Virus record (IMG/VR): IMGVR_UViG_3300002835_000017
Direction: 5' to 3' (one strand)
Source of the DNA: a virus
Length of the DNA: 64,000 nt
Shown: positions 1,261-36,449 of the stretch, one piece after another
How positions within the stretch are numbered: the first letter of the stretch is position 1
Layout of the letters: each line of letters starts with the position of its first letter
Position numbers and translations under genes: made by a program
The notes under the pieces: model-generated
Databases searched by the model: none
What the model saw: the letters and a program-made list of their open reading frames with translations, nothing else
What the model was told of the DNA's origin: nothing

Positions 1261-3822
1261 TTAAAATGTAAAAAACTTTTTTGCAGTTTGTGTTTCAGTT
1301 GATGCTTTTTCCCATTTCAATGCTTTGTAAAAATCATCTAACTTATTTTCCAACTCTGCTTTGAAAATCATATCTCTATCTACATATTGCTCTACAAAGT
1401 CCATAATTTCTTTTGGGTCATTGTAATCTTTAAATGCAACTGTATCTAATCCTAATGGGTTTTGTCTTAAATACACCCACTTAACCTTATCACCATCTCT
1501 AATTGGTTCATGCTTAAACGGGCAATCAAAGAACTTTAATAATCGGTTGTACGATATACCCGCTTTAACGTGTGCCGGAGTTCCTTTCTCAAAATTTGCA
1601 ATAGCTAACCCACTATCTTTTCTCCATTTTCCGTTATCGTATTTACTCAATTCCTTAATGGCTCCACCTTTTGCTATTTTGTTTACAGGTAGATTAACCA
1701 TACTAGCTTTAAATGCTAATAACTTTGTATCAACATACTCATTATCTTTACCCATAAGAATATCTTTCAACATACCTGACATATATTCCTGAAACGCTTT
1801 TGGGAAAGATGAACGAACTACATCCAAACCTTTTACATCCAACTTATCACATTTGATACCGTTCTTCAATACCATCCATTGTGCGTATCGTTTCTTTGCT
1901 ACCCAAAATCCTGCTTTGGAGATATATTCCTTTTTGATTTCAAATCTGTGTTTATCTTTTGGAATACAAAAGAATCTTTCAGCTAATAAATCATAAAATG
2001 AATTTAAGAATGTTTGTGTTTCTTCAGCAATTATGTTAACTTCACTTGCCATTCGTTGCTCATCAAACTCTTTGTATTCTGGATATCTATGTTTTACCAA
2101 TGGCTCTGCCATCATATAAATTGAATCCGTATCGATGTATACATTGTAATCTACTTTTGTACCTAATTCCTTATTATACTTGATATTTGCCATTTCAGCA
2201 GTTTTCTTAATCACAGTCTGACCTGTTATTGTAACTGCTTCTGCATTATCAATATCATAGAAACGAAATGCGGGTAATCCTAACACCCCATACATTGAGT
2301 TTAAAAGAATCTTTTGTACTAACTGGCGTTTGGCATAGAATTCATATTTTTCAGTATCACCTGCTTCACCATATTGTTTTTCTAATTTACGGAATTCAAC
2401 CCTTTGTTTGAACCATGTATCCAAAATATCTGCAATCAATCCTGGTTTATCTTGATTATATAATACACCATTTGCTGCTACCCCTAAATTACTATCTTTA
2501 ATAACTTCGGTTAATTCTTGTTTCGTATATTCGTATTTATCTCCTCCAGAACCTACAATTGTATAACTAGCATCTCCACCTCTAACCCAATGTTCTGCAT
2601 CCCAATTCTGAATTTTACCAATCTTCGTTTCAGGTGAGATATTCAGAGTCATAATGATTGATGGATATAGTGATGTTAAATCCAAATCATAAATCCAATC
2701 ATACTTACCAACAATCGGTTCTTTTACATAAGCTCCGATGAACTTCTCTTCGTTATTATCACGAAGTGCTTGCATCTTCTCTTTCCTATCTTTTGGTTTA
2801 TTTGGTGCTACTAACCCTTTGGTTTTTAGATATGCTAAACATGCTCCTTCCAAATATTTTGATGAGAACATATAATCTTCATACGGAACGAATCCTGCGT
2901 GGCAAATCGCTCTACATAACTCAATGAATTGAAGTTTCTCATCCATTGATACAACCAAGTCCACATCGACAATGTTATATTCAATAAACTTCTCCAAATC
3001 GTTTTCGAATAAATCATCCAAACTTCCCTCATACTCAACCTTACCTCTACCTAATTCTTTAGTAGCAATGTGATTTAGAGTATAGGATGATTCTAACCCA
3101 TAGTTATAGTTCTTATATAGATTAATATAATCCAAAATAGATACACCAGCAAAACTCCACTTCTGTCTGTAAGGTGAATAAAAGGTTTGTCCAATTGGAG
3201 ATAATCGTTTTGCATGTCCTTCCCCACATACGTTCTTAATACGATTGTAAAGATATGGAATATCAAAGAAATCAATGTTCCAACCTGTTAGGATTGTTGG
3301 ATTAACTTCTTCATAATAATTAAGAAATGCAATTAGAAGATTTTTCTCATTATCAAAAATATGCAGTTTTACATCTCTACCATCTTTACTGAATTGTTTT
3401 GCATTGTTTTTAACTTTTCTTGCTTTATCTAATACAAATACATCGTACAATTTAGTAACACCATCATGTGATGCTATTGCAGTAATTTCATTTTGTGCAA
3501 ATTGAGTGTTAGGTAATCCACTAACCATTTCAACTTCTATATCAAAAGTCATTGTTCTGTTTCCTTTTGATGGAATATCGGAATCGTATATATCAACTAA
3601 TACTCTAGTGGTTTCGGGTACATCTGATTCAAATAAATCTTCAGCTTCATCCTTTTCCCACTTTGAAATACGAGTCAATCTATCACCATGCATTGATGTA
3701 TGTTGTCCATACGGGTCTTTCTTATACGCATACTTTCGATATGGAAATGTTTGATAACCATTTTTATCATCCCATAGGTGGATAAGATTTTGTGCTCTTT
3801 CGTAAAATATGTTTTGATACAT
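1261..3822 (-). CDS. Family B DNA polymerase (T4 gp43-like)
   Basis: Exonuclease FDIE and GWNIDFFD; polymerase DLTSLYPSII, KILLNSMYG, YIDTDS, KKRY. Confidence 0.97.
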   Translation of the reverse strand: MYQNIFYERAQNLIHLWDDKNGYQTFPYRKYAYKKDPYGQHTSMHGDRLTRISKWEKDEAEDLFESDVPETTRVLVDIYDSDIPSKGNRTMTFDIEVEMVSGLPNTQFAQNEITAIASHDGVTKLYDVFVLDKARKVKNNAKQFSKDGRDVKLHIFDNEKNLLIAFLNYYEEVNPTILTGWNIDFFDIPYLYNRIKNVCGEGHAKRLSPIGQTFYSPYRQKWSFAGVSILDYINLYKNYNYGLESSYTLNHIATKELGRGKVEYEGSLDDLFENDLEKFIEYNIVDVDLVVSMDEKLQFIELCRAICHAGFVPYEDYMFSSKYLEGACLAYLKTKGLVAPNKPKDRKEKMQALRDNNEEKFIGAYVKEPIVGKYDWIYDLDLTSLYPSIIMTLNISPETKIGKIQNWDAEHWVRGGDASYTIVGSGGDKYEYTKQELTEVIKDSNLGVAANGVLYNQDKPGLIADILDTWFKQRVEFRKLEKQYGEAGDTEKYEFYAKRQLVQKILLNSMYGVLGLPAFRFYDIDNAEAVTITGQTVIKKTAEMANIKYNKELGTKVDYNVYIDTDSIYMMAEPLVKHRYPEYKEFDEQRMASEVNIIAEETQTFLNSFYDLLAERFFCIPKDKHRFEIKKEYISKAGFWVAKKRYAQWMVLKNGIKCDKLDVKGLDVVRSSFPKAFQEYMSGMLKDILMGKDNEYVDTKLLAFKASMVNLPVNKIAKGGAIKELSKYDNGKWRKDSGLAIANFEKGTPAHVKAGISYNRLLKFFDCPFKHEPIRDGDKVKWVYLRQNPLGLDTVAFKDYNDPKEIMDFVEQYVDRDMIFKAELENKLDDFYKALKWEKASTETQTAKKFFTF

Positions 3823-5404: not shown

Positions 5405-6124
5405 CTATGCGGTTAATTGTACTTCTACCAAGTAATAGTTTGCAGTGAAATCATCAATTTTGAATTCAACATGCGCTAAACCTGAAGTAGATATTTTTAA
5501 TACTACCGAATTGGCTTCTTTGTTTGCAGAGAAAATCTCTTTGAGATACTTTGCAGAGAATGAAATAGGTTTAACTTCTTCTGTATAATCTTTGTTAACA
5601 GAAAATTCAATCAAAGTTGAATTTACATTCGAATAACCTAATACAAGTTTCAATTCACTATTCTTTGTAAGAACGGTAAATGTATCTACATCAGATAATG
5701 CGTTTTTAGCTTTAATAAATTTGTCAATAAATTTACCATCAAATGCAATTTCAATATCAAATTCTGGTAGAGATTTCAAATCCGGAACTGATGGGATAAC
5801 TGCCAAATCCGCTAATTGGAATTGAGCCTTTGTATCATCACTTTTGATAAATAAACTTACAGCCTTTCCTTCAACTTGCTGAACATCCAATTCAACATCG
5901 TCACCTACAACTGATAACAATTTTGTTAATTGTGATGTTGTGTAAATACCTAAATTAGGTGTTGTTTGAGTAAAATTATCTAATTGAATTTCACCTAATA
6001 CTGTCTTATCATCGGAGATAAAACGAGTAACCAATTTGCCATCTGCTGCTTTCCATGCTACAGATTCTACTAATCCTGCCAAATTATACTTTTGGATAAA
6101 TCTTGTAATTCTTGTTTTGTTCAT
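5405..6124 (-). CDS. Sliding clamp (gp45/PCNA-like)
   Basis: 239 aa, beta-rich, PCNA-like FSAKYL and C-terminal YYL; lies beside polB and the clamp loader. Confidence 0.75.
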   Translation of the reverse strand: MNKTRITRFIQKYNLAGLVESVAWKAADGKLVTRFISDDKTVLGEIQLDNFTQTTPNLGIYTTSQLTKLLSVVGDDVELDVQQVEGKAVSLFIKSDDTKAQFQLADLAVIPSVPDLKSLPEFDIEIAFDGKFIDKFIKAKNALSDVDTFTVLTKNSELKLVLGYSNVNSTLIEFSVNKDYTEEVKPISFSAKYLKEIFSANKEANSVVLKISTSGLAHVEFKIDDFTANYYLVEVQLTA

Positions 6125-6181: not shown

Positions 6182-7411
6182 CTATGGTTTTTTCCATATC
6201 CATACTGGCTCACAAAATGTTTTATTTTTTGCTTCTTCCGCTTTTAATAGAGCTTCTTCTGTGTATCTTTCCTCATCCCCTTCTATAATTGCACCTGCTC
6301 CTGCTGAACCTGGTCTCTTTGCCATTTCCATCCCCAAGCAACCCTCATATTCTCCACCTAACGAAGCAATATAATCGTTCATAGGATTTGTTATCTCTTG
6401 ATACCCCTTACCATCTCCTTTGGAAGATGCATATACATCGGCAATATTGATTGCTAAATACCCACCCTTTCTAATAGTCGGCCAAACCTTTTCGATTGTT
6501 TTGTGTAAGAATAATTTATTCCATGCATCAATGTTGTTGTATCGAACCCAACTTTGGGTATCGTCATAAGAATATCGTTCAACATTGAAATATGGGGGTG
6601 AGCTGAAAACAATGTCAAAATAATTGGTGTACTCACTATAATCCATGTCTTCAGCTGGTGAGCAATGGAATGTAGTTTTTTTATCGGTTTCAAACCATCC
6701 GTTGTGTTTTTTGTAGAATTCTGATTGTTGTTCATAAATTGGGTGATTTTCTTTTCTCGGGTCAATGCCGACATAATGTTCTCCTTTTTCAGATGCCATA
6801 AATCCACACAGCCTATCTCCCCACCCTGCCGAAATGTCTAATACATTTTTTGCATCAACCATATCATAAAGTGCTTTGGCAACATTAGGTTTGAATTGGG
6901 AGCAAATGTATTTTCTCAAACCTAAACAAACTCTTAATTCACTTCTACCTACTTCATCAAATTTAAGAGTATATAATCCCCCCATTAGACTCGTCATAAA
7001 CTCCTTCGAATTCCACGTTCTATGAGGACCTGGCGAAACCGTCCCGTCTACACTCCATCTATTAGATTGTTGAAAGAAATTGGATGCAGAATTGCCAGTA
7101 TTCAACCTTCTTACAAATTGTTGTTTACCTCTGAAAGTTAAAGGATAATTGCTCTCCGATGCTTTACGAGGAAACCACTCACCTTCGGTTAGGAGTTCGT
7201 GATAGCGAGTTCCTTTGAGAGCAAGGTATTCTTTTCTAGCTTCTGTTTCTGTTATTTCTGCGTATGGTAGTTCGTATTCCATACACACTTCTGCAAGAGA
7301 GTCTTTTACATCATCTCTATCAAACGTGGTTTTAATATAACTCCACTCTTCACTATTGATGTGAAGATATGGAGTCATACCTTTGAACTTGTCAAAGTGC
7401 TCTAAATACAT
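6182..7411 (-). CDS. SAM-dependent amino-DNA methyltransferase-like protein (paralog 2)
   Basis: LDISAGWGDR, FSSPPYF; shares F.P..AK.LY and ERYS.D.TQS with 3832-5403. Confidence 0.8.
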   Translation of the reverse strand: MYLEHFDKFKGMTPYLHINSEEWSYIKTTFDRDDVKDSLAEVCMEYELPYAEITETEARKEYLALKGTRYHELLTEGEWFPRKASESNYPLTFRGKQQFVRRLNTGNSASNFFQQSNRWSVDGTVSPGPHRTWNSKEFMTSLMGGLYTLKFDEVGRSELRVCLGLRKYICSQFKPNVAKALYDMVDAKNVLDISAGWGDRLCGFMASEKGEHYVGIDPRKENHPIYEQQSEFYKKHNGWFETDKKTTFHCSPAEDMDYSEYTNYFDIVFSSPPYFNVERYSYDDTQSWVRYNNIDAWNKLFLHKTIEKVWPTIRKGGYLAINIADVYASSKGDGKGYQEITNPMNDYIASLGGEYEGCLGMEMAKRPGSAGAGAIIEGDEERYTEEALLKAEEAKNKTFCEPVWIWKKP

Positions 7412-7949: not shown

Positions 7950-9065
7950 TTACATCTTTTTAAGCAAAAATAACAACTCTTTTACTTTATTATTTCTTTT
8001 ATTACTTTTTATATTACCACCTCTAAATACAACATAATCTTTTTCAAACATTTTTACTTTACCGTGTTTATTCATAATTTCATAAAAATCTTCTTCTGTC
8101 AAAAATCCTTCATTATTATATGAAACTAATATAAATTTGGCATTTGTATTTTCAATTAATTTAGAAAATGTATCTTTAATTGTCGATTTCTTATTCCAAT
8201 CTGATTTGTTCCAATCATTTGGAATTCCTGATACTTTTGATAATATTTCTGGATTTATATTATTACTCAATATTGAGTTTAACATAAAATAGTTAGAACT
8301 ATATGGATGCTGATTATACGGTGGGTCAAAATATGCCAAATCCAATTCGGGTATATTTTTAACAATTTCGGCAGTATCACCTTTATAAATACTATAATCA
8401 CATTCATAATTAGAAAAAATTGGATATGGTAAAATTATTTCATCTGTAATTCTATTCATAGCATCACTATTAGTTCCACCAAACTTACCAATTTGAGTTG
8501 TTTTATCTTTATAAAAGCCTTTAAAAACTCCACTTGTATTATTATTTACAGATGCTTTATACAAAAGTGGTGCTAAATATAAATGTTTATTATTCATATT
8601 ATCAATATTATAGCGTATTGAATCTATAATATTTGCATTTTGGTTTGTATAAAAACATCTATCATCTTTTTGAATATTAGAATCATCTTTTGGTGAATAG
8701 TATTCACGAATAATTCCATTTTTTACATTATTTTGTCGTATACTATTTAAATAATCTATACCTCCCTTAATTTCAATTTGATTTAATTCTGATATGTTTG
8801 AAAGATAACATTTATTTATTGTTTCAACATAATCTTCTAAATCATTTGTATATAATTTACTGGAATGTTGTTTGAAAAATCTGGATACTACACCACTACC
8901 CGCAAACCCATCTAATATTGATAATTTATTTTTATTTAATTCGGATTTAACCTCATTCAATGGTTGCTCTATAAATGATAATAATTTTCGTTTATTACCA
9001 ATATATGTAATTAGTTGAGATGAAAGATATAGTGGATTTTCTACATCTATAAATTTTTGTATCAT
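7950..9065 (-). CDS. D12-class N6-adenine DNA methyltransferase
   Basis: YIGNKRKL, DGFAGSG (motif I), YFDPPY (motif IV). Confidence 0.9.
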   Translation of the reverse strand: MIQKFIDVENPLYLSSQLITYIGNKRKLLSFIEQPLNEVKSELNKNKLSILDGFAGSGVVSRFFKQHSSKLYTNDLEDYVETINKCYLSNISELNQIEIKGGIDYLNSIRQNNVKNGIIREYYSPKDDSNIQKDDRCFYTNQNANIIDSIRYNIDNMNNKHLYLAPLLYKASVNNNTSGVFKGFYKDKTTQIGKFGGTNSDAMNRITDEIILPYPIFSNYECDYSIYKGDTAEIVKNIPELDLAYFDPPYNQHPYSSNYFMLNSILSNNINPEILSKVSGIPNDWNKSDWNKKSTIKDTFSKLIENTNAKFILVSYNNEGFLTEEDFYEIMNKHGKVKMFEKDYVVFRGGNIKSNKRNNKVKELLFLLKKM

Positions 9066-9076
9066 TATATAATTTA

Positions 9077-9796
9077 TTATAAATATTTAGCAATATAGTA
9101 TTCCAATGATTGTTCGGAAGTGGATTTAAAAACTTTTACCATTTCTTCATAAGTCCAATCGGATGAACCATATAATGCTTCATTATATTTGTGTCCTCGC
9201 ATGTAATATGTTCCAGCTCTATTAAATGAATCTTTAAATAAATTAATTGTGTTTTTCTTTAAACCTTTAAAAACCATCACAACACGAGACCCAATTGTTT
9301 CACTCTCATCAAAATCACATCCTTGTAAAAAAGTAACAAACGGTAAAATACGTTCTTGTGAAAATAACAAATCTAAACAATTGTAATTTTTACCCAATCT
9401 TTCAACTGCGTTTCCCAATGCTTGTTTTGATTTACCTTCTGCTAGTCTTTTATCATTTGTTCCTTGTGTTTTTTGTTCTCCAACTAATATAAACCGTTTA
9501 ACACCATTAATTATTACATAAATAAATCCACCATCTGGTGTTAAAAATGTACTATCTTTAACTGATTCCAAATAAATAGAATCTCCTAACCCATAATCGT
9601 TTCTTAATATTAAATATATTTCGTTTATAGATAATTTTTTTTGAAATCCAAATGTGTATTTTGGATATTTCTTTTTTAGAAATTTTAAAGTATCATTAAC
9701 GGATACAATCATTAATTTTTCTTGTATTTTAGAAAATGTGTTCTTTTCTGAATGTTGGTTTTTACGATTTCTAATTGATTCTGATAAGTTTGTCAT
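9077..9796 (-). CDS. EcoRI-family type II restriction endonuclease
   Basis: PDGG...ILVGEQKTQG (PD-ExK) and GNAVERLGKN...PFVTFLQG parallel EcoRI PDGG/AEAKHQG/GNAIERSHKN/PYVLFLEG. Confidence 0.8.
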   Translation of the reverse strand: MTNLSESIRNRKNQHSEKNTFSKIQEKLMIVSVNDTLKFLKKKYPKYTFGFQKKLSINEIYLILRNDYGLGDSIYLESVKDSTFLTPDGGFIYVIINGVKRFILVGEQKTQGTNDKRLAEGKSKQALGNAVERLGKNYNCLDLLFSQERILPFVTFLQGCDFDESETIGSRVVMVFKGLKKNTINLFKDSFNRAGTYYMRGHKYNEALYGSSDWTYEEMVKVFKSTSEQSLEYYIAKYL

Positions 9797-9891: not shown

Positions 9892-10656
9892 TTATTTTCC
9901 AACATTCCAAAATAAAGTATCTTCACTAATTGTTGCCATCTCCTGAATATGTTTCCATGCTTTACTATCGTATGTTAATGATGATGGAAATGGTGGTCTA
10001 TCTTCCATTTTGCAATCTTTGTGGAACGGCATTCTTTTTGGTATTGTGGTTGCTCTACCTTGCTGAACGATTGATGTGTTGTGTCCAATTTGAACTCCAT
10101 ATACTTTTGCATCAGGCCAAGCTAATTGTAAACCTCTACTTAATGTACCAGAACTCATTACACTCCAAACTTCTTTTGGTGTAAATGGTAGCTTTCTTGC
10201 CGTTTCTACGATTGTGTTTAGAATGATTGGGTCATCAAATCCGAATGGAACTAATTTAATCTTATCCCATCCATGTCCTTGTCTATCTTTTGCCTTTCGA
10301 TTTAAGTTAGTTAGGTATCCCATAGGAACTTCGTTGATTTCTGCACCCACCATTTCTGCTTCTAATGTAAGTTCGGTTCTTTTACCTTGTGGAACATACA
10401 CAATTGCTTTCTTTCCTAAATCTCTGCAAGCGTATGCTAATGCAACTTGTCCGTATCCTTGTCTGGGGGATGCGTAAATCCATTGTTCTACCTGTGGATA
10501 CGCCAACATATATGAATATGCGAATCTGCGTTTACTACCGCCAGGTAAAAGGTCATCTCTTACAACCTTTATACCTGCGATAGTTTGAACTACGATAGGT
10601 GGTAAATTCACCTCATAGTTATATCTTTCTAAATGAAAATCTAAATGTTTATACAT
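9892..10656 (-). CDS. PLP-dependent fold-type II enzyme (ACC deaminase/D-cysteine desulfhydrase-like)
   Basis: VRDDLLPGGSKRR PLP-lysine motif, SSGT phosphate loop, TYDSKAW, LFWNVG; ATG at 10656 preferred over the track start. Confidence 0.8.
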   Translation of the reverse strand: MYKHLDFHLERYNYEVNLPPIVVQTIAGIKVVRDDLLPGGSKRRFAYSYMLAYPQVEQWIYASPRQGYGQVALAYACRDLGKKAIVYVPQGKRTELTLEAEMVGAEINEVPMGYLTNLNRKAKDRQGHGWDKIKLVPFGFDDPIILNTIVETARKLPFTPKEVWSVMSSGTLSRGLQLAWPDAKVYGVQIGHNTSIVQQGRATTIPKRMPFHKDCKMEDRPPFPSSLTYDSKAWKHIQEMATISEDTLFWNVGK

Positions 10657-10659
10657 AAC

Positions 10660-10690
10660 CAAATTTACGAAAAAAAATCCAATAAAACAA
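10660..10690 (-). promoter_or_regulatory. Bacteroidota sigmaA-type promoter (TTG-N20-TAAATTTG)
   Basis: Exact TAnnTTTG with TTG 20 nt upstream. Confidence 0.7.
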
Positions 10691-14038: not shown

Positions 14039-15397
14039 TTATCCCATATTTTCCACATACTTTTTGTGTAATAATTTTTTCTCCAAACCTTCACCATTTT
14101 TGCTATCTTTTGTAGAAGCCATACCATCAATAGATGTTGCTGCGAACACATCCATAATACCATGAAACGTATCAATCTTTGCTGGAAAGGTCATTCCATC
14201 AGGTCCAAATCGATTTTTAACGATATGAATACGACCTGTGTTTGATAACTTATCCTTTGTTTTTCTACTAACACTCATAATGAAATCAGCAGTTTGAACT
14301 TTCTTGTACGAATCTCCAACCGAATCGGCTTGAATAACTTCGTGGTCAATTGCTGCTCTATTAGTCTGTGTTGCAGTCCATACTGGTATCTGTGCTTCAC
14401 CACTCAATCCTCGCAACTCCTCATAGATTCCACCCAACTCCGCATACAATCCATCTCTATTACTATTGCCAGATTTTAATAAATCCGCATAATCAATAAT
14501 AATTAATTTAGGATTGAACCCAACTTGTCTTACTTTTTCAATATGAGCTGCAATTGTTTTTGCAGATGCGAATTGTGGTGGATAATATTTAATACGAACT
14601 CTACCTGGAATCTTTTTAATTTTGCGGATAATTTCATCTTTCCTATCCTTATGTTCGGATGTTTGGATACCAGTAAGAATTGTAGTATATCTCTGTCCTA
14701 CATAACTTTCTGATAACTCCAAAGTATAATGTAATACATCAATACCCTTTTCTAATGCAGAACACGCTATTTTAGATAAGAACCAACTTTTACCAATACC
14801 GGAGGGAGCCATTACAACACCCAATTCACCAGGCCCCAAACCACCATCCATTAGTTCATCAACAACATCCCATCCAGTTGGACACGAATCTCGTTTAACA
14901 TCTTCCATAATGGATTCAAAGTTTTCAATGTAATCTAATCCTAAATCAGATTCTACACCCACCTTTGATGCTGCCATCATCGTATCTATAATCTTATCGT
15001 AGTTTCCTGCTTTGAGTAAATCTACCGATTTTAGAAGGGCATCTTTTACTTTTTGGTTTTTACAAAAAGTTAAATATTCTTTTTTAACATAAGGTAAATC
15101 TTCGGAACCAACTTGTAAATAAACATTTTTAAGTTGGTCAACTACGGTTTGTTTTAAACCTTTATCATCTATAGAACTTACTTTGATTTTGAACACCTCC
15201 ATTGTAGGAGTTGCTCTAAATTCATTAAAGTAATCTAATAGAGAATTTATAATCCATTGATTTGCCTGTGATTCAAAGAATGTAGGTTTAGTGATTTCGT
15301 TTACCTGTTCAAGAAACTTAACATCTGTTATAAGAGAAGCAACAACTTTAGATTGATACGATTGTCCATATTTTACCAATGTATCTACTGCTTCCAT
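14039..15397 (-). CDS. Replicative DnaB-like helicase (gp41-like)
   Basis: APSGIGKS Walker A, TLE, IDYADL, TATQTNR, KNRFG. Confidence 0.93.
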   Translation of the reverse strand: MEAVDTLVKYGQSYQSKVVASLITDVKFLEQVNEITKPTFFESQANQWIINSLLDYFNEFRATPTMEVFKIKVSSIDDKGLKQTVVDQLKNVYLQVGSEDLPYVKKEYLTFCKNQKVKDALLKSVDLLKAGNYDKIIDTMMAASKVGVESDLGLDYIENFESIMEDVKRDSCPTGWDVVDELMDGGLGPGELGVVMAPSGIGKSWFLSKIACSALEKGIDVLHYTLELSESYVGQRYTTILTGIQTSEHKDRKDEIIRKIKKIPGRVRIKYYPPQFASAKTIAAHIEKVRQVGFNPKLIIIDYADLLKSGNSNRDGLYAELGGIYEELRGLSGEAQIPVWTATQTNRAAIDHEVIQADSVGDSYKKVQTADFIMSVSRKTKDKLSNTGRIHIVKNRFGPDGMTFPAKIDTFHGIMDVFAATSIDGMASTKDSKNGEGLEKKLLHKKYVENMG

Positions 15398-15942: not shown

Positions 15943-17001
15943 TTAAAATTTTGCTATGTGAGAAAATGTGGATTGTAACCAGTCCGTAACATTTGGAAAC
16001 GAATCCAATATACGAGCTTTCAATCCTACTTTTAAAAATTCTTGCTTACTAAACTTTGGTACTGATTCTTCAAATCTATCTATAATTTTCATTCGAAGAT
16101 TACCACTAAATGTTGGTTCAGAAAGTTGAAACAATTTACGATTTCTTTTTAAGATTTCCAAATTATTTTCAAACAATTCATGCCCCTTTACTTTTTTTGG
16201 TTGAGTTTTAATATACTCTAACATAGAATCGGTAGTATGAACTTCCTCATCTGCTAATATTGGAAATGCTTTAAGAATTGTTTTTAATCCTAATCCTGTA
16301 ATACCCTCTACATTATCAGATTTATCACCATCAATTATTCTAAAATTAATAAAATTGTGTGGGTGAATACCAAACTCCTCAATAACTTCTGGAATATTGT
16401 ATATTTTCTTTTTAGATGGTGAATACACACTCACATCTTTATTTACCAATTGAATGAAGTCCTTATCGGAACTCATTATCACAACTTTTTCGTTTTCTTT
16501 TTTTAATTGAGTAGCAATGTACGCCATTACATCATCCGCTTCAATTCCATCATATATCATAATAGTGACAGGTAGAACTGAAAGTAGTTCACCTAATGCC
16601 GTCATTTGACGTTTCATTGATGCACTTTCTTCTTCAGGTGTCATTTGAATAGATGCGGCACGATTCAATCTCATTTTGATTTTATTCTTGCCTCTTTCCG
16701 ATTTGTATCCGGAATATATTTCTTTCCTACTATTCGAACCACCTTTACCATCAAATACGATTACAACTCTGGTAGGATTGATTGTTCGGATGGCATAGCC
16801 GATACTTTTTAAAGTACCGACTATTCCTCCAATATGGTCACCATTCTCATTAAGATTAGGTGCAGTTGACCAGGAACGAATGAAGGTATTAAGACCATCA
16901 ATAACTAATGTTTTAGAGTTACGATGTAAATCTCCAAAATCATTATGTTCCCTATCTATTTGTTTTAGTATATCTAAATACTTTTTGTTAATCTGACTCA
17001 T
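15943..17001 (-). CDS. 5'-3' exonuclease/RNase H (FEN family)
   Basis: IDGLN, VFDG, EADD, SSDKDF, GDKSDNVEG..GLG.KT. Confidence 0.92.
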   Translation of the reverse strand: MSQINKKYLDILKQIDREHNDFGDLHRNSKTLVIDGLNTFIRSWSTAPNLNENGDHIGGIVGTLKSIGYAIRTINPTRVVIVFDGKGGSNSRKEIYSGYKSERGKNKIKMRLNRAASIQMTPEEESASMKRQMTALGELLSVLPVTIMIYDGIEADDVMAYIATQLKKENEKVVIMSSDKDFIQLVNKDVSVYSPSKKKIYNIPEVIEEFGIHPHNFINFRIIDGDKSDNVEGITGLGLKTILKAFPILADEEVHTTDSMLEYIKTQPKKVKGHELFENNLEILKRNRKLFQLSEPTFSGNLRMKIIDRFEESVPKFSKQEFLKVGLKARILDSFPNVTDWLQSTFSHIAKF

Positions 17002-18091
17002 TTCCTTCGTCCGTTGTTATTTCAACTTCATCCGATGATGCTGCTTTGTATAATAAAATTGTTGCTTCACAAATCCTACGATAGATTTGGTCTTTAAGTT
17101 CTTCGTTTTCTAATAATTTAGCGAAGTCCTTTGATTGAAATTTCATAATTTCACCTGTATCAATATCAGTGTATTCATACCATGCTCCACCTTGCTTTAG
17201 AAGTTTAGCATCTTTCATAACTGCTAACCAACCTCCGAAATTATCAATACCTCTATCAAAGAAGATATCGAAATCCGCGTGTCTCAAAGGAGGACCCATT
17301 CGGTTTTTAATAACCTGTGTTCTAACTTTGATACCTACGATTCTATCACCTTGTTTCAATTGCCCCATATTCTTCAATCTCAATCTAACAGATGCGTGGA
17401 ATGCAAGTGCTTTACCACCCGATGTTGTCCACGGGTCTCCGAACATTGCGTTCATCTTCTGTCTTAATTGATTTGTGAATACTAATGCAATAGATTGTCT
17501 ACCAATCATATTGGTAATCTTTCTCATTGCTTTGGAGATAATAATTGCCTTATCGGTTGCGTAACCATCTTTACCATAATCGGCTTCTAACTCCTTATGT
17601 GTTGATGCTGCTGCTACTGAATCCACAACGATTGTTACCAATCTATCCTTATCACCTTTACGAACTTGCTCAATAATTGTTTCACATGCTTCAAAAATAC
17701 CTTCAACAGTATCAACTGAAACATATAGGAGTTTTGAGATATCTACTCCAATTGCTTCTAAAAATTCTCTACTAACTGCGGTTTCGGTATCAATCAGAAC
17801 TGCAACACCACCTTTACGTTGTGTTTCAGCTAATAAATGGGCAGAGAGCAGAGATTTTCCACTCTGCTCTAAACCCGTTATTTCTGTTATTCTACCAACT
17901 GGCAATCCACCATAAGGTCTGTTTGAGATTGCAACATCCAACATAGCGTTTCCGGTAGATACCCAATCCTTTACATTGGTAGGAGCATCACCACCCTCAT
18001 CTGTTAGAAAGTAAGCAATCTTACCATCCTTATTTTGTTTGTTTAGAGAATCGGCAAGTAAACTTGCTAAATCTTCTTCTCTTTTTGCCAT
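16988..18091 (-). CDS. recA: RecA/UvsX recombinase
   Basis: GLEQSGKS, IDTE, VDSVAA, NQLR, TSGGKAL.F.AS.RL, KNR. Confidence 0.95.
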   Translation of the reverse strand: MAKREEDLASLLADSLNKQNKDGKIAYFLTDEGGDAPTNVKDWVSTGNAMLDVAISNRPYGGLPVGRITEITGLEQSGKSLLSAHLLAETQRKGGVAVLIDTETAVSREFLEAIGVDISKLLYVSVDTVEGIFEACETIIEQVRKGDKDRLVTIVVDSVAAASTHKELEADYGKDGYATDKAIIISKAMRKITNMIGRQSIALVFTNQLRQKMNAMFGDPWTTSGGKALAFHASVRLRLKNMGQLKQGDRIVGIKVRTQVIKNRMGPPLRHADFDIFFDRGIDNFGGWLAVMKDAKLLKQGGAWYEYTDIDTGEIMKFQSKDFAKLLENEELKDQIYRRICEATILLYKAASSDEVEITTDEGNESD

Positions 18092-18103
18092 TTATAACTA
18101 ATT

Positions 18104-18964
18104 TTAGTTGTTAAATAAATCATCGAATGCCGATGCTACATCTTCTTTAAGAGGAGATGCTTTTTGTGTAGATGCCTTTGGTTCTTCATCATCCCAAGGT
18201 AACCCACCACTTTCTTGAGTACCACCCATATCAGTAGATACAGTTGATTGTTTAGGTTGAACTTTTGCCGATGCCAATTCCTCATTAATTGGGTTTCCAC
18301 TACCATTAGATGGAGCAGATGGGTTTAACCAATTTTCCAATACACCCTTCAATTCATCGTAAGATAATTCAGAATATAGTTCTGTAATCTCTTTTTGTGC
18401 GTTCAATAATTCAGTTACTGCCTGTGCGTCATCCAAAATTTTAGATACGGCAGGTTTAACTCTGATTGTAGTTGTTGGGTATGCTGCATTTGATTCTTCA
18501 GCTGATACTACTTCTAATACAATATCACGTCCTGTGTGTGGGTCTGTAATATCACCATAATCAGGGTCAGCAATATATCCTAAAATATCTTGATATACTG
18601 TTTTACCAAATCCCCAAAATTTAACTCCTTCACTTTCTTTACCTCTTACGATAACTGGTGCGAATGTTCTCAATTTTGGTTCCATTTTTTTCCCGGCCTT
18701 CCAGTCATCAGTGTCTCCTGTACGCTTTAGCTTTTCAGCAAACTCTACGATAGGGTCAGGTCTTCCAAATGAAATTGGAGATAGATACGTTTTGTTGTTA
18801 ATATTGTAGTGAAAATACAATTCAATGAAAGGATTATCCTTATTGAATTTGTAAGGTACTAAACGGATTTGAGATTTTCCGTTTGCTGGCTTCCAAATGG
18901 AATCAGACTTCTTTGTGTTGTTTTGAAGAGAGCTAAATCTCTTGAGTGCTAATGAAATGTCCAT
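18104..18964 (-). CDS. Single-stranded DNA-binding protein (gp32-like)
   Basis: Aromatic core, GDITDP..GRD motif, acidic tail ending AFDDLFNN. Confidence 0.8.
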   Translation of the reverse strand: MDISLALKRFSSLQNNTKKSDSIWKPANGKSQIRLVPYKFNKDNPFIELYFHYNINNKTYLSPISFGRPDPIVEFAEKLKRTGDTDDWKAGKKMEPKLRTFAPVIVRGKESEGVKFWGFGKTVYQDILGYIADPDYGDITDPHTGRDIVLEVVSAEESNAAYPTTTIRVKPAVSKILDDAQAVTELLNAQKEITELYSELSYDELKGVLENWLNPSAPSNGSGNPINEELASAKVQPKQSTVSTDMGGTQESGGLPWDDEEPKASTQKASPLKEDVASAFDDLFNN

Positions 18965-19096: not shown

Positions 19097-19453
19097 TTAT
19101 TTTGCCCACTTCCCTCTACTCACTAATTGAGAAATTACGGAGTAAACTGCTAGGTCTTGATAGGTATCTTCGATAGTTTCAGACACTTCATCGGGATGTC
19201 CTAATACTACCAATTGCTTTAATCTGTTGATTTTATCGTTCTTTCTGAACCATAGGCCATTCAATGATAATTTAACATCTTCTTTAGTTTGAAGTGATGT
19301 ACCTACTGAAATATTACCCGGTCCGTAGTTTCTTTGTTTTTTACAAAAAGTAGTATACATTTCATCCAGAATATTTTTAAATTCAAAAGTCATTTCTGGA
19401 TAAGTTTCTTCACAATATTCGACTGCGGATTGTTCTTTTTTGGTATCTAACAT
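19097..19453 (-). CDS. DUF1599/nucleotide-modification-associated domain 1-like protein
   Basis: KQRNYG...R.NDKINRL...EDTYQDLAVY pattern. Confidence 0.65.
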   Translation of the reverse strand: MLDTKKEQSAVEYCEETYPEMTFEFKNILDEMYTTFCKKQRNYGPGNISVGTSLQTKEDVKLSLNGLWFRKNDKINRLKQLVVLGHPDEVSETIEDTYQDLAVYSVISQLVSRGKWAK

Positions 19454-19802: not shown

Positions 19803-20204
19803 TTACAACTCCTCTGTATTAAAACTTTTAAAAACTTTTGTAGGAATTTTTTTATATCCAATTGAAGATGTTGTAATAATACAATTTTTAAATTCATCCC
19901 AATCAATCATATACGAACTATCCAATATCCCACCCGTCTTTGATTTAACTACTTCATTGAGTGCGTTGATGGTGTATATTGTATTTGACTGTTTTTTTCT
20001 ATGAACTAAAATTGTTTTCCAATCGGATGGTATTGCAGAAGAACCTTTTTTAACATTGAATGTAATGTATAGTTCTCCCTCATTTATTTTATTTTCTAAT
20101 ACAAATACGTTTGGGTTTGTAAGTATATACTGATTTAGAACAAATTCTAACGATTTATCTAACTCTTCTTTTATGGTAAAAAGACATAATAACTGTGTAT
20201 TCAT
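19803..20204 (-). CDS. Hypothetical protein
   Basis: 133 aa ORF; late-type motif at 20230-20238. Confidence 0.65.
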   Translation of the reverse strand: MNTQLLCLFTIKEELDKSLEFVLNQYILTNPNVFVLENKINEGELYITFNVKKGSSAIPSDWKTILVHRKKQSNTIYTINALNEVVKSKTGGILDSSYMIDWDEFKNCIITTSSIGYKKIPTKVFKSFNTEEL

Positions 20205-20261: not shown

Positions 20262-22493
20262 TTATTTACGACTTTTCCTAGAATCCACTTTAGAAGCAAT
20301 ACATTGACTCAATCCATCTCCTAATTTTTTCTCAACTTTTTTACTTTCACCGGAAGTTCTCCAGCTATCTTCTACCAATGAAACATTCCCATTTGGATTT
20401 GTAATTTCAATATATCCAGTAGTTGCATTTATTTTACACTTCTTTAATAGATGTTGATTCAATTGGTCTCTTCCTTCTTTTGAGTTAATATCTCCTTCAA
20501 ATCCACTTAACTCCGCTAAACATCCTCTAAAATCTTCAGGTCTACTTCCTCTGATACCAGTCACTGCCGATAAATTTTTATCGAAGTTTTCAACCATTAA
20601 ATCAAAGTGCATTGAATGCATTGCAGTTGCTATGTATGCCGATGTGTGAGGACCATTATTTCCATCCTTATCTGGAAATCCTTTTTCTCTATCAGCTTTA
20701 GAAATTTCATTTACCATATCACGATGCACTGCTCCAACTAAATCTTTTTCATCATTTTTATTTTTAACTGCCAACGCAATTGATTCTGAATTAAAATCTA
20801 TATCAGGATATTTTTGTTTCGTTTTTGTTTCTTGTGCAAATTCACCAACTTTTGTGAGAATTTTACCAAATTTTTTATAAGAAACTTTTTTACCCCTTGC
20901 CTCCTCTGATTTCATATATTGTTGAGCAGCTTGTAATAATTCCATATTATTTTTAGGCTTTACATTATTTTGTTGCATCCATTTATTGAATTCTGGTTGT
21001 TCTTTTAAAGCATCCATATATGGTTGCATTTCTTCGATTTCGCTAATTTTAACAAAATTTTCATCAATTTTCATAGATGCAAACGCTCTATTAGTAGCCT
21101 GTTTTCCATCTGCACATTTATCAATGCCATCTTTTGCAAAAGTTACTACTGCTTCGGATACTTCTGGACCAAACTGTTTTATGATACTAGCTAACATATA
21201 TTCTGGAGTTGTATTTGCCCACATATCTTTCAAATCATTTTGTTTTTTATTTGTAATGTGTAAGATAGTAGTTCTTCCATTTTTATCTTTACCAATTGCC
21301 ATAGTATCATGGAATCCTAATTTATCAAATGCTACGATTTCCCTTTCGTAATGTTCAACATCTTCTGCATTTCCAGATTTTTTTGCTTCTTCCAATTTAT
21401 CTTGTAAGTGTGTCCGAATTGATGCATCTGCTCCACCAGCTTTTGGATTAGATTGAATTATATGATACGGTTGTGATGTATCAATATTACTACCATTTTC
21501 AATCTCGTATAAAGTAGCGTGTGCACCATCAAATTCAGCATCAGCCCAGTCTCTGAACGCCTTTTCTTTTTTGGCTTCATCGGGTTGATTAAAACCTTTA
21601 GTACCTTTATTATACCAAAGGGAGTTAGGATTGGCTTTTAATCTTTCTAACTCCAAATCACCATATACTTTTCTTTCTGCTAAATATTGTACTGCCTCTT
21701 CTGCTGAAACTCCCAATTGTTCTGAAATCGCTTTAACTTTTCTAGCATTTGCTTTTGAGTTTGCAAGAATATTTTTCTTTTCTACTTCAATTGCTTCTTT
21801 ATTAGTTTCTTTAAATTTAGAATACCCGTCTCCTTTTAAATCATTTGCAGCACGTGTCAATGCCGATTCACCGTATGATGCAACCGAACCACCTGCTCCC
21901 GCAATACCTTTATCTCTCAATGCATTTACCTCATCTGATGCTTTAACAAGTTCTGAAAAATCTCCTTTGTTTAAAGATTGTGTAATTTCTTCTTGACGAG
22001 GTGTTAATTTTCCAGGTTCAGATTTTGGTTTCGAAGATTTAGTTGGTTTTTTTGATTTTTGTTGTGCGTTCTTTTCAGCACTACTAACACCAATATCTGC
22101 TTTTGGTGCAGTTTGTGGTGTATCTGCTTTTGGAGATGGTGTTGATGTATCTTGTGTAGGTAATTCACCACCATTACTCGCTTTCGCTTTCTCTATTTCA
22201 GCAGGAGTTGGTTTAACGTGTTTATCTGGATTAAATGTTTTAACGGTGTAAACATTACCGGAATCTTTACCTTTTACAACTTCATCTTCTTTGATAACTC
22301 GTTTCGATTTTGAGGTGTATTCCTTTATATACTTAAATACAACAGATGCTCTATCTACGAGTTGTTGAGCAGAATCAATATTTCTTTCTCTTAAAAGTTT
22401 TACTAATATTTGTTTATGAGATTCCTTTGTTAAGTCAACAATTCCTACCTTAACTGATAAATCATCTAATGCTTCTTCAAAATCTGGATACAT
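20262..22493 (-). CDS. Large hypothetical protein, possibly virion-internal
   Basis: 743 aa, Pro/Lys-rich linker, late-type motif at 22519-22527. Confidence 0.6.
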   Translation of the reverse strand: MYPDFEEALDDLSVKVGIVDLTKESHKQILVKLLRERNIDSAQQLVDRASVVFKYIKEYTSKSKRVIKEDEVVKGKDSGNVYTVKTFNPDKHVKPTPAEIEKAKASNGGELPTQDTSTPSPKADTPQTAPKADIGVSSAEKNAQQKSKKPTKSSKPKSEPGKLTPRQEEITQSLNKGDFSELVKASDEVNALRDKGIAGAGGSVASYGESALTRAANDLKGDGYSKFKETNKEAIEVEKKNILANSKANARKVKAISEQLGVSAEEAVQYLAERKVYGDLELERLKANPNSLWYNKGTKGFNQPDEAKKEKAFRDWADAEFDGAHATLYEIENGSNIDTSQPYHIIQSNPKAGGADASIRTHLQDKLEEAKKSGNAEDVEHYEREIVAFDKLGFHDTMAIGKDKNGRTTILHITNKKQNDLKDMWANTTPEYMLASIIKQFGPEVSEAVVTFAKDGIDKCADGKQATNRAFASMKIDENFVKISEIEEMQPYMDALKEQPEFNKWMQQNNVKPKNNMELLQAAQQYMKSEEARGKKVSYKKFGKILTKVGEFAQETKTKQKYPDIDFNSESIALAVKNKNDEKDLVGAVHRDMVNEISKADREKGFPDKDGNNGPHTSAYIATAMHSMHFDLMVENFDKNLSAVTGIRGSRPEDFRGCLAELSGFEGDINSKEGRDQLNQHLLKKCKINATTGYIEITNPNGNVSLVEDSWRTSGESKKVEKKLGDGLSQCIASKVDSRKSRK

Positions 22494-22532
22494 ATTTTAT
22501 TTGTGTTTCTGTATATCTTATAAATATATAAA

Positions 22533-23798
22533 TTATCCTAAATGAACCAAATTATTGTAACTGGTTCCTTCATCAATTCGAACGGGAAACCCACCCTTTT
22601 CCATAATGGTCGGTAAAAGTTTTAAAATCCCTTCCCTCTCCATCGGATGTGTATCTATGAGAAACGCATCATAAGTGTATAGAATCAATTTCGATTTCAT
22701 CCCACTCATTTGGTTTAGGATATCACTCATCTTTTTATAGTTCACTTCCGTTTCGAGGGCTTGTAGGAGATAATTAAATACCTTTTGTTCAGTCCCTCCT
22801 TCTATTTTAGTGAAATGAATTTCCCTTCCGTATAGGGGTGTTTTCAGAACTCCGGAGATTACGAACTTTTGGTAAACCTCTTTGATGTATTTATCAACGG
22901 TTTGATAAAATGGTATCTCCCTTGCGAACGAATCCAACCCCCCATAGAGATACTTAAAGGTTAGAGCCTTTGCCGTTTCGTAATCCGTTCCATAAAGATT
23001 GGCAAGGTGTTGGTGAGCAGTTTCTCCTTTTGGAAATTCATACCCTACGATTTTCGCAATCAAACGGATGTGATACGATTCATAATCAAATTGAAGGAGA
23101 GTACCCCCATCAAAACGGCTAACAAAACAATCTCTACTACCATCGGATTTGTTAAGAGCAGAGTAATTTACATTAAGGTGTCTATTGGATGGTCTACCCG
23201 TAGTTGTGTATGGATTGTATTTGGTATACACTTTACCCTCATATATGTGATTGGGAGAGAAGCTAAATCTATCAATAAATTTTTCCTCTTCGACTTTCAC
23301 CCCAGCCCCCTCCATCCTCCCTAACTCTTTTATAGAATCTGAATATATACGATACCAACTCTGTCGATTTTGTATATCAGGGATTGATTTTAAGAGTTCG
23401 TACCACTTCATTAGTGGGATACAATCATTCAACTCATTATAATCGGACCTATACCCCTTAAAAAGAGTTTCTGCCCATTCAGAGAAATTAAATGGTTTAC
23501 CATATTCTTCGAAGTAAACCCATTCATAATCCAACCCGTCTGATTGAATATATCGGTTTCCTAAAACAAGAGTATTTTCGTTACAAAGTTTATGTATTGG
23601 AAAAATTGGTAAGGTTGAAGCATCAACATGATTGAAATTTATTATACCATCATCGGTTTCAGTTCGATAATACACAAATGATAGGTGTGTACCAAATTCG
23701 TGTGCTTTGGGTGAACCCCACACTGGTATCAATAATCTAATGTTTGGATTAGATTGGACAAAAAAATGTAGGGTATCCCTATTTTCTATTAAGTTCAT
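22533..23798 (-). CDS. Divergent, short family A DNA polymerase-like protein
   Basis: TTGRPS, motif A DYESYHIR, motif B AKALTFKYLYGG, NYLLQ, motif C TYDAF. Confidence 0.85.
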   Translation of the reverse strand: MNLIENRDTLHFFVQSNPNIRLLIPVWGSPKAHEFGTHLSFVYYRTETDDGIINFNHVDASTLPIFPIHKLCNENTLVLGNRYIQSDGLDYEWVYFEEYGKPFNFSEWAETLFKGYRSDYNELNDCIPLMKWYELLKSIPDIQNRQSWYRIYSDSIKELGRMEGAGVKVEEEKFIDRFSFSPNHIYEGKVYTKYNPYTTTGRPSNRHLNVNYSALNKSDGSRDCFVSRFDGGTLLQFDYESYHIRLIAKIVGYEFPKGETAHQHLANLYGTDYETAKALTFKYLYGGLDSFAREIPFYQTVDKYIKEVYQKFVISGVLKTPLYGREIHFTKIEGGTEQKVFNYLLQALETEVNYKKMSDILNQMSGMKSKLILYTYDAFLIDTHPMEREGILKLLPTIMEKGGFPVRIDEGTSYNNLVHLG

Positions 23799-23804
23799 AC
23801 CCTA

Positions 23805-23835
23805 CAAATATATAAAATTTATTTCAATAATCCAA
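23805..23835 (-). promoter_or_regulatory. Bacteroidota sigmaA-type promoter (TTG-N20-TATATTTG)
   Basis: Exact consensus 6 nt upstream of PolA-like ATG. Confidence 0.7.
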
Positions 23836-23836
23836 G

Positions 23837-24616
23837 TTATTCTCCCCAATGGTTTTTACGAAGTTCATATACATCGATTGGCTCACGTTTCATGTGATTA
23901 CCTTGATTAAAGTATGCTCCTTTTTTTAGATATCCACCCAAAAAGTTTCGTCTAAATCTATTTGATTTATTTGGTTCTGAACCATGAATTGTGTGTGAAT
24001 GAAGTAAAACAACTTCTCCTTTACGAAGGTATCCTTCTACTTTTCTAAAATCATGTCCTTCTGGCATAACACACGGCTTACCTCTTTCGTTTCTCCAAAA
24101 CTTTGGATTACTCTTTGCTCTTTCCTCATCAATTTCAATAGGTAAGACTGGTAATCTATGTGAACCTTCATAATTCCATACTGCACCATTTTCTGGATCG
24201 TGATTATCTAACGCTAAAGCAGTATTGATAATTTCGTTATGTTTGCAACCTGTATAGAATCCATTTTGATGTTGGTCTCTACCCAATTGTCCTGGTGGTT
24301 TGAAATATGCCCAAGTTTGTAAGCCTATCAACTCTCCCTCCATCAAAAACTCCATTGCTTCAATCAACTTTGGATGGACAAATAATTTTTCTAATTTTGA
24401 TGATAATTTGTGTGGATATGCAAATGGGTCCCATTCTCCCCATTCTTCACCATTATCTTTAGTAGTCAATGACCGTTCTTGACGTAATTTTTCTAATTCA
24501 TTATTAATTTCATCACATTCTTCCTCTGTAAGGAGTTGTAATACGGTCCAACCTCGATATCTCCAATCGAAGGTCATTTGTTGAATTTCTTCTTGTGTAA
24601 GATGTTTAAATGCCAT
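23837..24616 (-). CDS. PhyH-family 2OG-Fe(II) dioxygenase
   Basis: KPPG..HQN, ALD...PENG...GSH, GEVVL.H..TIHGS.PN.S.R.R. Confidence 0.85.
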   Translation of the reverse strand: MAFKHLTQEEIQQMTFDWRYRGWTVLQLLTEEECDEINNELEKLRQERSLTTKDNGEEWGEWDPFAYPHKLSSKLEKLFVHPKLIEAMEFLMEGELIGLQTWAYFKPPGQLGRDQHQNGFYTGCKHNEIINTALALDNHDPENGAVWNYEGSHRLPVLPIEIDEERAKSNPKFWRNERGKPCVMPEGHDFRKVEGYLRKGEVVLLHSHTIHGSEPNKSNRFRRNFLGGYLKKGAYFNQGNHMKREPIDVYELRKNHWGE

Positions 24617-24638: not shown

Positions 24639-24669
24639 TAAATATACTATAAATATTTTTTATTTCCAA
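24639..24669 (-). promoter_or_regulatory. Nested host-type (TTG-N20-TATATTTA) and late-type (ATATTTATA, 24648-24656) promoter motifs
   Basis: Both motifs visible upstream of the PhyH gene. Confidence 0.5.
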
Positions 24670-34096: not shown

Positions 34097-34144
34097 TTGT
34101 GTATATATTTAATGTTTATTACTTATAAATATTGTTTTTTAAAA

Positions 34145-36379: not shown

Positions 36380-36449
36380 TTTATATGCTAATTTAAAATT
36401 TTTATTATCTTAATATAAATATTAAAATTATTTTCAAAACAACAAATTA

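Follow-up and report, generated by a model that had tools for sequence, protein, structure and literature searches.

What use does a phage with a complete family B DNA polymerase have for a second polymerase, one that is reduced to a minimal family A core and carries a histidine where Pol I has its steric-gate glutamate? The question is raised by a locus within a stretch of 64,000 nucleotides (IMG/VR virus record IMGVR_UViG_3300002835_000017), which is referred to here as the window. The original prediction, made from the letters of this sequence alone, had read the enzyme as possibly a primase or a ribonucleotide-incorporating polymerase.

A second, reduced family A polymerase

Judged from its sequence, the gene encodes a genuine family A DNA polymerase of the divPolA1 type, strongly conserved and pared down. 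That a second polymerase, of family A, stands beside a full PolB, as had been predicted, was confirmed by the 421-aa ORF and by the PolB gene present in the same window:

22533..23798, minus strand: divPolA1 gene, an intact ATG-to-TAA ORF of 421 aa encoding a minimal family A DNA polymerase
23349..23798, minus strand: exonuclease-fold domain, residues 1-150, a vestigial 3'-5' exonuclease without the catalytic DEDD residues
22536..23348, minus strand: palm and fingers, residues 151-421, with the thumb almost wholly deleted
1261..3822, minus strand: PolB, gp43-like with exonuclease domain (Pfam DNA_pol_B and DNA_pol_B_exo1; phrog_262, E = 1.6e-183)

The divPolA1 family was published by Yutin et al. 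2024 (Virol J 21:200, PMC11348598), who described it from Flavobacterium phage vB_FspM_immuto, whose gene 1 is the type example, and 13 related genomes, as an extra PolA in addition to a regular polymerase, which may be of family A, B or C. According to the same report, the catalytic residues of the palm are conserved, the thumb is truncated, the exonuclease domain is inactivated, all three of its catalytic aspartates being replaced, and a conserved set of replication genes lies downstream of divPolA1. The window protein shares 32% identity with immuto gene 1 over residues 119-418 (tblastn E = 4e-31, blastp E = 8e-37), and we assign it to divPolA1 because this identity, the gene order and the published description all match. 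By the same comparisons it is a new, divergent member of the family, from a lineage outside the 14 genomes of PMC11348598. Its closest cultured relative is the divPolA1 of Microcystis phage Mel-JY01 (29% identity), which is annotated there as "hypothetical", and a nucleotide search of the gene against phage records gave no match. Among general profiles, Pfam DNA_pol_A (PF00476) was matched with 35.3 bits, marginally above its cutoff of 34.3, and phrog_17, "DNA polymerase", with E = 5e-10; a profile of the family itself, built from 106 sequences, matched E. coli Pol I with E = 5e-18. The family is large: one database contains 1513 clusters at 90% identity, and a second one 1039 representatives at 50% identity, of which 468 have E < 1e-30. 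Our literature search found divPolA1 named only in PMC11348598 and its preprint, and retrieved no biochemical data for any member. The text of PMC11348598 says nothing about a steric gate or ribonucleotides, about divPolA1 acting as a primase, or about the replacements of R754, H881 and E883 described below; the invariant His gate and the two co-inherited neighbour genes are, apparently, details absent from its discussion.

The AlphaFold (AF2) model of the 421-aa protein has a pLDDT of 96.2 and a pTM of 0.92. The best matches of this model in a fold search, covering residues 1-419, were all DNA polymerases: M. smegmatis Pol1 (Z 22.8), Klenow (Z 22.7, rmsd 3.2, 408 residues aligned), Pol nu (Z 22.5), phage G20c Pol I (Z 22.0) and T7 DNAP (Z 20.6). 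In contrast, the RNA polymerases of T7, mitochondria and N4 were matched over palm and fingers only (243-275 residues, Z 8.6-12.5). Comparison of the model with Klenow and T7 RNAP, which had been proposed as a check of the RNA-synthesis reading, places the protein with DNA Pol I (Z 22-23 over about 400 residues), while a weaker resemblance to the RNAPs is restricted to the common core.

Two structural remarks of the original prediction were borne out. It had seen no clear exonuclease motifs: residues 1-165 of the model keep the DEDD exonuclease fold, with matches to RNase D (Z 8.7) and to Rrp6 and the WRN exonuclease (Z 6.7-8.1), the matches of this group spanning Z 6.7-9.2, and P25, W27 and G80 occupy the positions of the catalytic D355, E357 and D424, the Exo III segment being absent, in an hhalign alignment to Klenow of low probability (25%). 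This low-probability alignment agrees with the description of the domain in PMC11348598. It had also seen little room for a full thumb: the family profile aligns to Pol I residues 524-558 and then to 642-909, skipping the thumb (559-641), and after motif 1 (E163) no more than about 20 residues precede the strand leading into the TGR motif. Compared with Klenow and KlenTaq, the overall fold, including an exonuclease-like domain, is common to all, and motifs 1, 2, A, B, 6 and C remain recognisable; KlenTaq likewise has a vestigial exonuclease domain. The differences from Klenow are (i) a length shorter by about 180 residues, with thumb residues 559-641 missing and the fingers shortened, (ii) the replacements E710H, I709Y, R754Y, H881Y and E883A, and (iii) a 5' nuclease encoded by a separate gene.

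The nucleotide pocket

The motifs that form the active site are located as follows:

23064..23087, minus strand: motif A, DYESYHIR, with the catalytic D238 (D705), Y242 in the place of I709 and H243 in that of the steric-gate residue E710
23070-23072, minus strand: codon of His243, inside motif A
22941..22982, minus strand: motif B (O-helix), YETAKALTFKYLYG; Y273 replaces R754, and K758, F762 and Y766 are kept
22746..22778, minus strand: motif 6, FNYLLQALETE, which retains N845 and Q849 and has an additional Glu (E349, at Klenow A852) that is invariant in the family
22662..22679, minus strand: motif C, YTYDAF, with the catalytic D377 (D882) between Y376, in the place of H881, and A378, in that of E883

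Equivalences to known polymerases were drawn from two independent alignments, a phmmer alignment to KlenTaq chains and an alignment of the family profile to E. coli Pol I. Both gave the same pairs of window and Pol I residues: D238 = D705, H243 = E710, Y273 = R754, K277 = K758, F281 = F762, Y285 = Y766, N342 = N845, Q346 = Q849, Y376 = H881, D377 = D882 and A378 = E883. DYESYHIR is aligned with DYSQIELR of Pol I, with His243 at Glu710. The motif A, B and C readings of the original prediction, with both catalytic Asp residues kept, hold with re-derived coordinates, and so does the Glu-to-His exchange at the gate, which both alignments recover.

Conservation was followed in three sets: 131 full-length representatives, a 106-row alignment, and 183 proteins from fetched viral loci, the last of which contains the immuto and Mel-JY01 proteins and extends to identities as low as 25%. 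His243 is invariant in each of them (131/131, 106/106 and 183/183); a histidine at the E710 position therefore characterises the family as a whole. Also invariant in all sets are R202 (R668), D238, K277, F281, Y285, Q346, Y376, D377 and E349, while N342 (N845) falls just short of this, with 123/131 and 182/183. Almost every divPolA1 sequence has Tyr or Phe at position 242 (Klenow I709); position 273 (R754) is mostly Tyr and almost never Arg, and position 378 (E883) is Ser or Ala. The canonical E710, R754 and H-D-E of motif C are absent family-wide, their places being taken by H243, Y273 and Y376-D377-A378. These canonical residues are typical of family A rather than defining for it. As read from the alignments, the nucleotide pocket is remodelled across the whole family, through I709Y/F, E710H, R754Y, H881Y and E883S/A together with a new invariant Glu at A852.

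Since the His lies at E710 and is invariant family-wide, an altered nucleotide pocket may fairly be inferred, and this part of the predicted change in substrate use stands; the steer towards priming or RNA synthesis that came with it is weakened by results given in this and the next section. The His gate, the Tyr or Phe at I709 and the Y-D-S/A motif C make an altered sugar selectivity possible. An explanation that goes further along this line is that sugar selectivity is relaxed or switched, so that divPolA1 would incorporate rNTPs or make primers de novo, possibly with a 133-aa neighbour protein as cofactor in the manner of CCPol-MP. It draws on the invariant His at the gate and on the Tyr/Phe that precedes it; in engineering work, substitutions at the equivalent of Klenow I709 (I614 in Taq, I616 in Tth) alter substrate specificity. 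It also draws on the loss of R754 and on the motif C consensus Y-D-S-F, which is without the DNA-polymerase Glu, like the H-D-S-F of T7 RNAP. The truncated thumb of divPolA1 points the same way, the last thumb helix being shortened in both CCPol and the single-subunit RNAPs (Bebel et al. 2020, PMC7581432). Nevertheless, the deoxyribose pocket keeps its other half unchanged, F762 and Y766 being invariant, and the minor-groove readers R668, N845 and Q849 are invariant or nearly so. Besides, His is not smaller than Glu and an open gate is not required, the fold scores (Z 22-23 to DNA polymerases, about 8-12.5 to RNAPs) favor the DNA polymerases, and Pfam RNA_pol (PF00940) was unmatched at E values up to 1. 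On balance, and with the primase and neighbour-protein results presented below, we regard the relaxed or switched sugar selectivity as unlikely. A direct comparison with the single-subunit RNAPs (T7, mitochondrial and N4) leads in both directions: the core of palm and fingers is common, the gate Glu is absent in both, and the third carboxylate of motif C is absent in both as well (consensus Y-D-S in divPolA1, H-D-S in the RNAPs), whereas the window protein seems to be without the promoter-binding N-terminal domain and the specificity loop, has an exonuclease fold as its N-terminus, and keeps the DNA-polymerase residues R668, N845, Q849 and F762.

The same substitutions raise the question of whether the protein is a polymerase at all. 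A protein that has the polymerase fold but is inactive, and that serves the replisome as a structural or regulatory subunit, would account for the absence of R754, H881 and E883, for the loss of the thumb and of the exonuclease activity, and for the marginal Pfam score. It would not account for the invariance, down to 25% identity, of both Asp residues, K758, Y766, F762, R668 and Q849, or for the near invariance of N845; such a pattern is expected of an active site under selection and not of a scaffold, and we consider an inactive subunit highly improbable. Because the catalytic and substrate-contact residues are invariant or nearly so over this range, divPolA1 is probably active. R754 and E883 are important for catalysis in Klenow, and since both are missing here the activity is possibly low, or dependent on compensation or on a partner.

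The replication block and its co-inherited genes

The window derives from a low-GC (33%) contractile-tailed phage, a T4-distant myophage, in which nearly all listed ORFs of at least 120 aa are on the minus strand. In addition to the genes discussed here it encodes ribonucleotide reductase, tail sheath and fibres, and a search for tRNAs within the window found none. The closest cultured relatives are Microcystis phage Mel-JY01 (49% identity in PolB, 47% in the sheath) and Flavobacterium phage immuto, with a 484-kb uncultured phage beside them. The genes around divPolA1 are:

14039..15397, minus strand: DnaB-like replicative helicase (Pfam DnaB_C; phrog_19, E = 1.8e-76)
15943..17001, minus strand: Pol I-type 5'-3' exonuclease, FEN (Pfam 5_3_exonuc_N and 5_3_exonuc)
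16988..18091, minus strand: RecA/UvsX-like recombinase (Pfam RecA, E = 2.8e-61)
18104..18964, minus strand: gp32-like ssDNA-binding protein (SSB; Pfam gp32, E = 2e-15), syntenic in relatives
19803..20204, minus strand: 133-aa protein, near-universal companion of divPolA1
20262..22493, minus strand: 743-aa protein directly downstream of divPolA1, its companion in most lineages
23837-24616, strand not given: PhyH-type dioxygenase

divPolA1 stands at the head of this block, followed by the 743-aa and 133-aa proteins, the gp32-like SSB, RecA, the Pol I-type FEN and DnaB, and its synteny with SSB, RecA, FEN and DnaB extends over close and distant lineages, including the two cultured phages. In NCBIfam the FEN scores best with the N-terminal domain of DNA polymerase I (E = 4.2e-43, as against 1e-30 for stand-alone 5' nucleases). 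The FEN is thus like the N-terminus of Pol I, and therefore, between them, the FEN and divPolA1 genes cover the domain set of Pol I.

A regular polymerase accompanies divPolA1 in 5/5 related genomes, being a PolB in 4/5 and a 778-aa regular PolA in immuto; in the published set it varies among families A, B and C and lies in a functionally mixed neighbourhood (PMC11348598). This variation, set beside a divPolA1 that in all lineages occupies the first place of the SSB-RecA-FEN-DnaB block, would be explained if divPolA1 were the principal replicase and the regular PolB, PolA or PolC an exchangeable accessory enzyme. A polymerase without proofreading and almost without a thumb is, however, a poor fit to the faithful and processive copying of about 200 kb, and the PolB of the window is complete and gp43-like, with an exonuclease domain and a PCNA_C-like clamp candidate close by. 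We therefore find a principal-replicase role quite improbable and presume that the PolB at 1261-3822 is the main replicase.

Neighbour proteins were surveyed in about 200 divPolA1 loci from close and distant lineages, whose ORFs were searched iteratively with the proteins of the window. Homologs of the 743-aa protein are present in 55/55, 45/64 and 21/32 of the loci with enough flanking sequence. They measure about 620-740 aa, and at the junction with divPolA1 the stop and start codons often overlap, with a median gap of -3 to +1 in the distant lineages. The 133-aa protein is found still more widely, in 123 of the 131 divPolA1 loci whose downstream flank is long enough; in the cultured immuto and Mel-JY01 alike, its homolog is the gene next to divPolA1. 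It is more conserved than divPolA1 itself, with identities of 76-84% versus 65-75% among close relatives and of 40% versus 32% against immuto, and the family has the invariant motifs QLLC.F, HRKK and YTINALN. That the 133-aa and 743-aa proteins travel together with divPolA1 is new here.

Searches for the nature of these two proteins returned little. Neither has a Pfam, PHROG or NCBIfam match, and the ESM Atlas held no usable matches for either. The model of the 133-aa protein is confident (pLDDT 92.7); its profile gave noise only against PDB sequences, its fold search yielded ferredoxin-like halves and generic beta-alpha-beta-beta arrangements at Z <= 6.4, and BFVD contained one uncharacterised homolog. 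The prediction of a complex between divPolA1 and the 133-aa protein scored 0.00, below the mark, a result that counts neither for nor against binding. For the explanation by sugar selectivity, the linkage of the 133-aa protein in 123/131 loci is a favorable point, as is the precedent of CCPol-MP, in which priming is achieved by a reduced family A polymerase together with a small partner; the low fold scores, and the absence of an OB-fold SSB of the MP type among the 50 fold matches listed, may weigh against it.

The primase reading had leaned on the statement that no DnaG primase lies near the helicase in this window. Literally this is true, as tblastn for a DnaG primase returned noise only within the window, but it is misleading, since a primase is encoded elsewhere in the genome. 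As a proxy for the whole genome we used a sister genome, an IMG/VR contig of 201,940 bp whose identity to the window is about 90% where the two align. It encodes a 313-aa gp61-like primase with the DnaG Zn-ribbon and Toprim (phrog_47, E = 2.9e-51), in a gene about 55 kb beyond the position of the window's end. Equivalent primases were found in 4/4 other divPolA1 genomes searched, namely two near-complete contigs, immuto and Mel-JY01, so that genomes with divPolA1 do encode a DnaG/gp61-like primase; no Prim-Pol domain was found. The idea of a phage without a primase was rejected on account of these genes. With an ordinary primase encoded elsewhere, the primase reading loses its main contextual support, and the steer towards primase activity or RNA synthesis is weakened both by these five genomes and by a fold far closer to that of DNA Pol I. 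The same gp61-like primases, and the lack of a Prim-Pol match, count against relaxed or switched sugar selectivity.

Probable role and relation to known systems

Altogether, we think it probable, from the sequence comparisons and the predicted fold, that divPolA1 is an active, proofreading-less, low-processivity accessory DNA polymerase of an SSB-RecA-FEN-DnaB replication-recombination module. Bulk replication would be left to PolB with its clamp, and divPolA1 would probably carry out short-patch synthesis. Most likely it would work with the neighbouring FEN to fill gaps as Okazaki fragments mature; divPolA1 could then be the polymerase half of a split Pol I, to which the FEN would supply the other domain. 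Alternatively, it might extend strand-invasion intermediates made by RecA. In T4-type replisomes a second polymerase is normally unneeded for Okazaki maturation, and the specific role proposed for divPolA1 is for that reason a guess. That divPolA1 always heads the block, whichever regular polymerase is present, would also fit a role more central than gap filling. It is tempting to speculate that the His gate, the Tyr/Phe at I709, the loss of R754 and E883 and the new invariant Glu together make the substrate range non-standard (rNTPs, a modified sugar or nucleotide, or de novo priming) and that the 133-aa and ~700-aa proteins may form a complex with divPolA1 and replace the thumb; we hold this to be rather doubtful, although, if true, it would amount to a new kind of multi-subunit family A replisome enzyme.

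Among known systems, the divPolA1 of immuto is the closest in organization: it is likewise a second polymerase with a truncated thumb and a dead exonuclease, in a block with SSB, RecA, 5'-3' exonuclease and DnaB. The window differs from it in the 743-aa gene, which is inserted between divPolA1 and the 133-aa gene. CCPol-MP of SCCmec (PMC7581432; Rice 2023, PMC10061031) is another reduced family A polymerase beside a replicative helicase, with a small conserved neighbour gene and a shortened thumb element, a likeness drawn by description only. In CCPol, however, the exonuclease domain is wholly absent and the partner MP is an OB-fold ssDNA binder (PMC7581432, PMC10061031), whereas divPolA1 of the window keeps the exonuclease fold, the 133-aa protein has no OB-fold match among the 50 listed, and a DnaG-type primase is present. 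Finally, divPolA2 of barbaviruses (PMC11348598) is also a second, divergent PolA beside PolB and without proofreading. It has an unrelated globular N-terminal domain and a variable context, in contrast to the exonuclease-fold N-terminus and fixed replication context of the window protein.

The family is of wider relevance. divPolA1 is abundant in aquatic phage metagenomes, where large phages carry it beside their main replicase, and in a phage group where that replicase is freely exchanged it is the only polymerase that stays constant. The window adds to the published family a new lineage and two co-inherited genes. A deeply conserved natural His gate in an enzyme with neither thumb nor proofreading is a ready-made experiment on sugar discrimination, of possible interest to polymerase engineers for the incorporation of XNA or rNTPs; should divPolA1 be an ordinary gap-filling DNA polymerase, it would be a tidy case of a phage Pol I split over two genes.

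Two further claims about the gene, that it looks more GC-rich than its flanks and has its own early promoter, did not hold. Its GC content of 0.368 compares with a gene mean of 0.329 (sd 0.038; z = 1.0), which ranks it 8/47. The 38-bp gap upstream of divPolA1 contains no sigma-70-like site, and the scan gave 14 such sites versus 11.7 ± 3.6 in shuffles. The only feature of this gap is ATATTTGTA (23803-23811), a one-mismatch copy of a window-wide motif, ATATTTATA; as the latter occurs throughout the window and mostly before structural genes, ATATTTGTA is no evidence for a private early promoter. ATATTTATA itself is enriched three-fold in the window (15 occurrences versus 4.8 ± 2.2), and 14/15 of its copies are on the coding strand.

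Companions of the divergent polymerase

Two further genes accompany divPolA1, the gene for the 421-aa minimal family A DNA polymerase (22533-23798, minus strand), whose reading frame is unbroken here:

20262-22493, minus strand: uncharacterised protein of 743 aa, immediately downstream of divPolA1
19803-20204, minus strand: 133-aa protein of no known family, co-travelling with divPolA1

The 133-aa protein was found at 123 of the 131 divPolA1 loci with enough downstream sequence, as well as in both cultured relatives (Microcystis phage Mel-JY01 and Flavobacterium phage immuto). Its sequence conservation exceeds that of the polymerase itself, with QLLC.F, HRKK and YTINALN as invariant motifs; its AlphaFold2 model is confident, and a fold search with this protein returned no informative match. 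The 743-aa protein combines a conserved N-terminus of about 45 aa, a low-complexity linker rich in Lys, Pro and Ala, and a divergent C-terminal part. In most lineages its homologs follow divPolA1, frequently with overlapping stop and start codons; immuto and Mel-JY01 lack one.

A Pol I domain set in two genes and a probable clamp

15943-17001, minus strand: 5'-3' exonuclease (NCBIfam)
5405-6124, minus strand: 239-aa protein near PolB, the gp43-like polymerase

The best match of the exonuclease is the bacterial Pol I N-terminal domain (NCBIfam E = 4e-43). Together with divPolA1 it makes up the Pol I domain set as two genes, with about 5.5 kb between them. The 239-aa protein, which gave a weak, below-cutoff match to PCNA_C (E = 4.6e-4), is probably a sliding clamp.

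Possible modification genes and a repeated motif

7950-9065, minus strand: D12-class adenine methyltransferase, adjoining the nuclease
9077-9796, minus strand: EcoRI-family nuclease (Pfam E = 1e-14)
3832-5403, 6182-7411, 9892-10662 and 19097-19453, minus strand: two methyltransferase-like paralogues (phrog_12517, phrog_498), a PLP-dependent enzyme and a DUF1599 protein
23837-24616, minus strand: PhyH dioxygenase

The nuclease and the D12-class enzyme may form a restriction-modification pair, located inside this lytic-type phage's replication region. The remaining genes, among them the DUF1599 protein labelled "nucleotide modification associated", are dispersed across the replication module and hint at DNA or nucleotide modification.

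The motif ATATTTATA occurs at 15 sites in the window against 4.8 ± 2.2, a three-fold enrichment; examples are:

22519-22527
24648-24656
34124-34132
36414-36422

Fourteen of the 15 copies lie on the coding strand, usually immediately upstream of structural genes. As a candidate promoter element of the phage, ATATTTATA resembles a T4-type late promoter.
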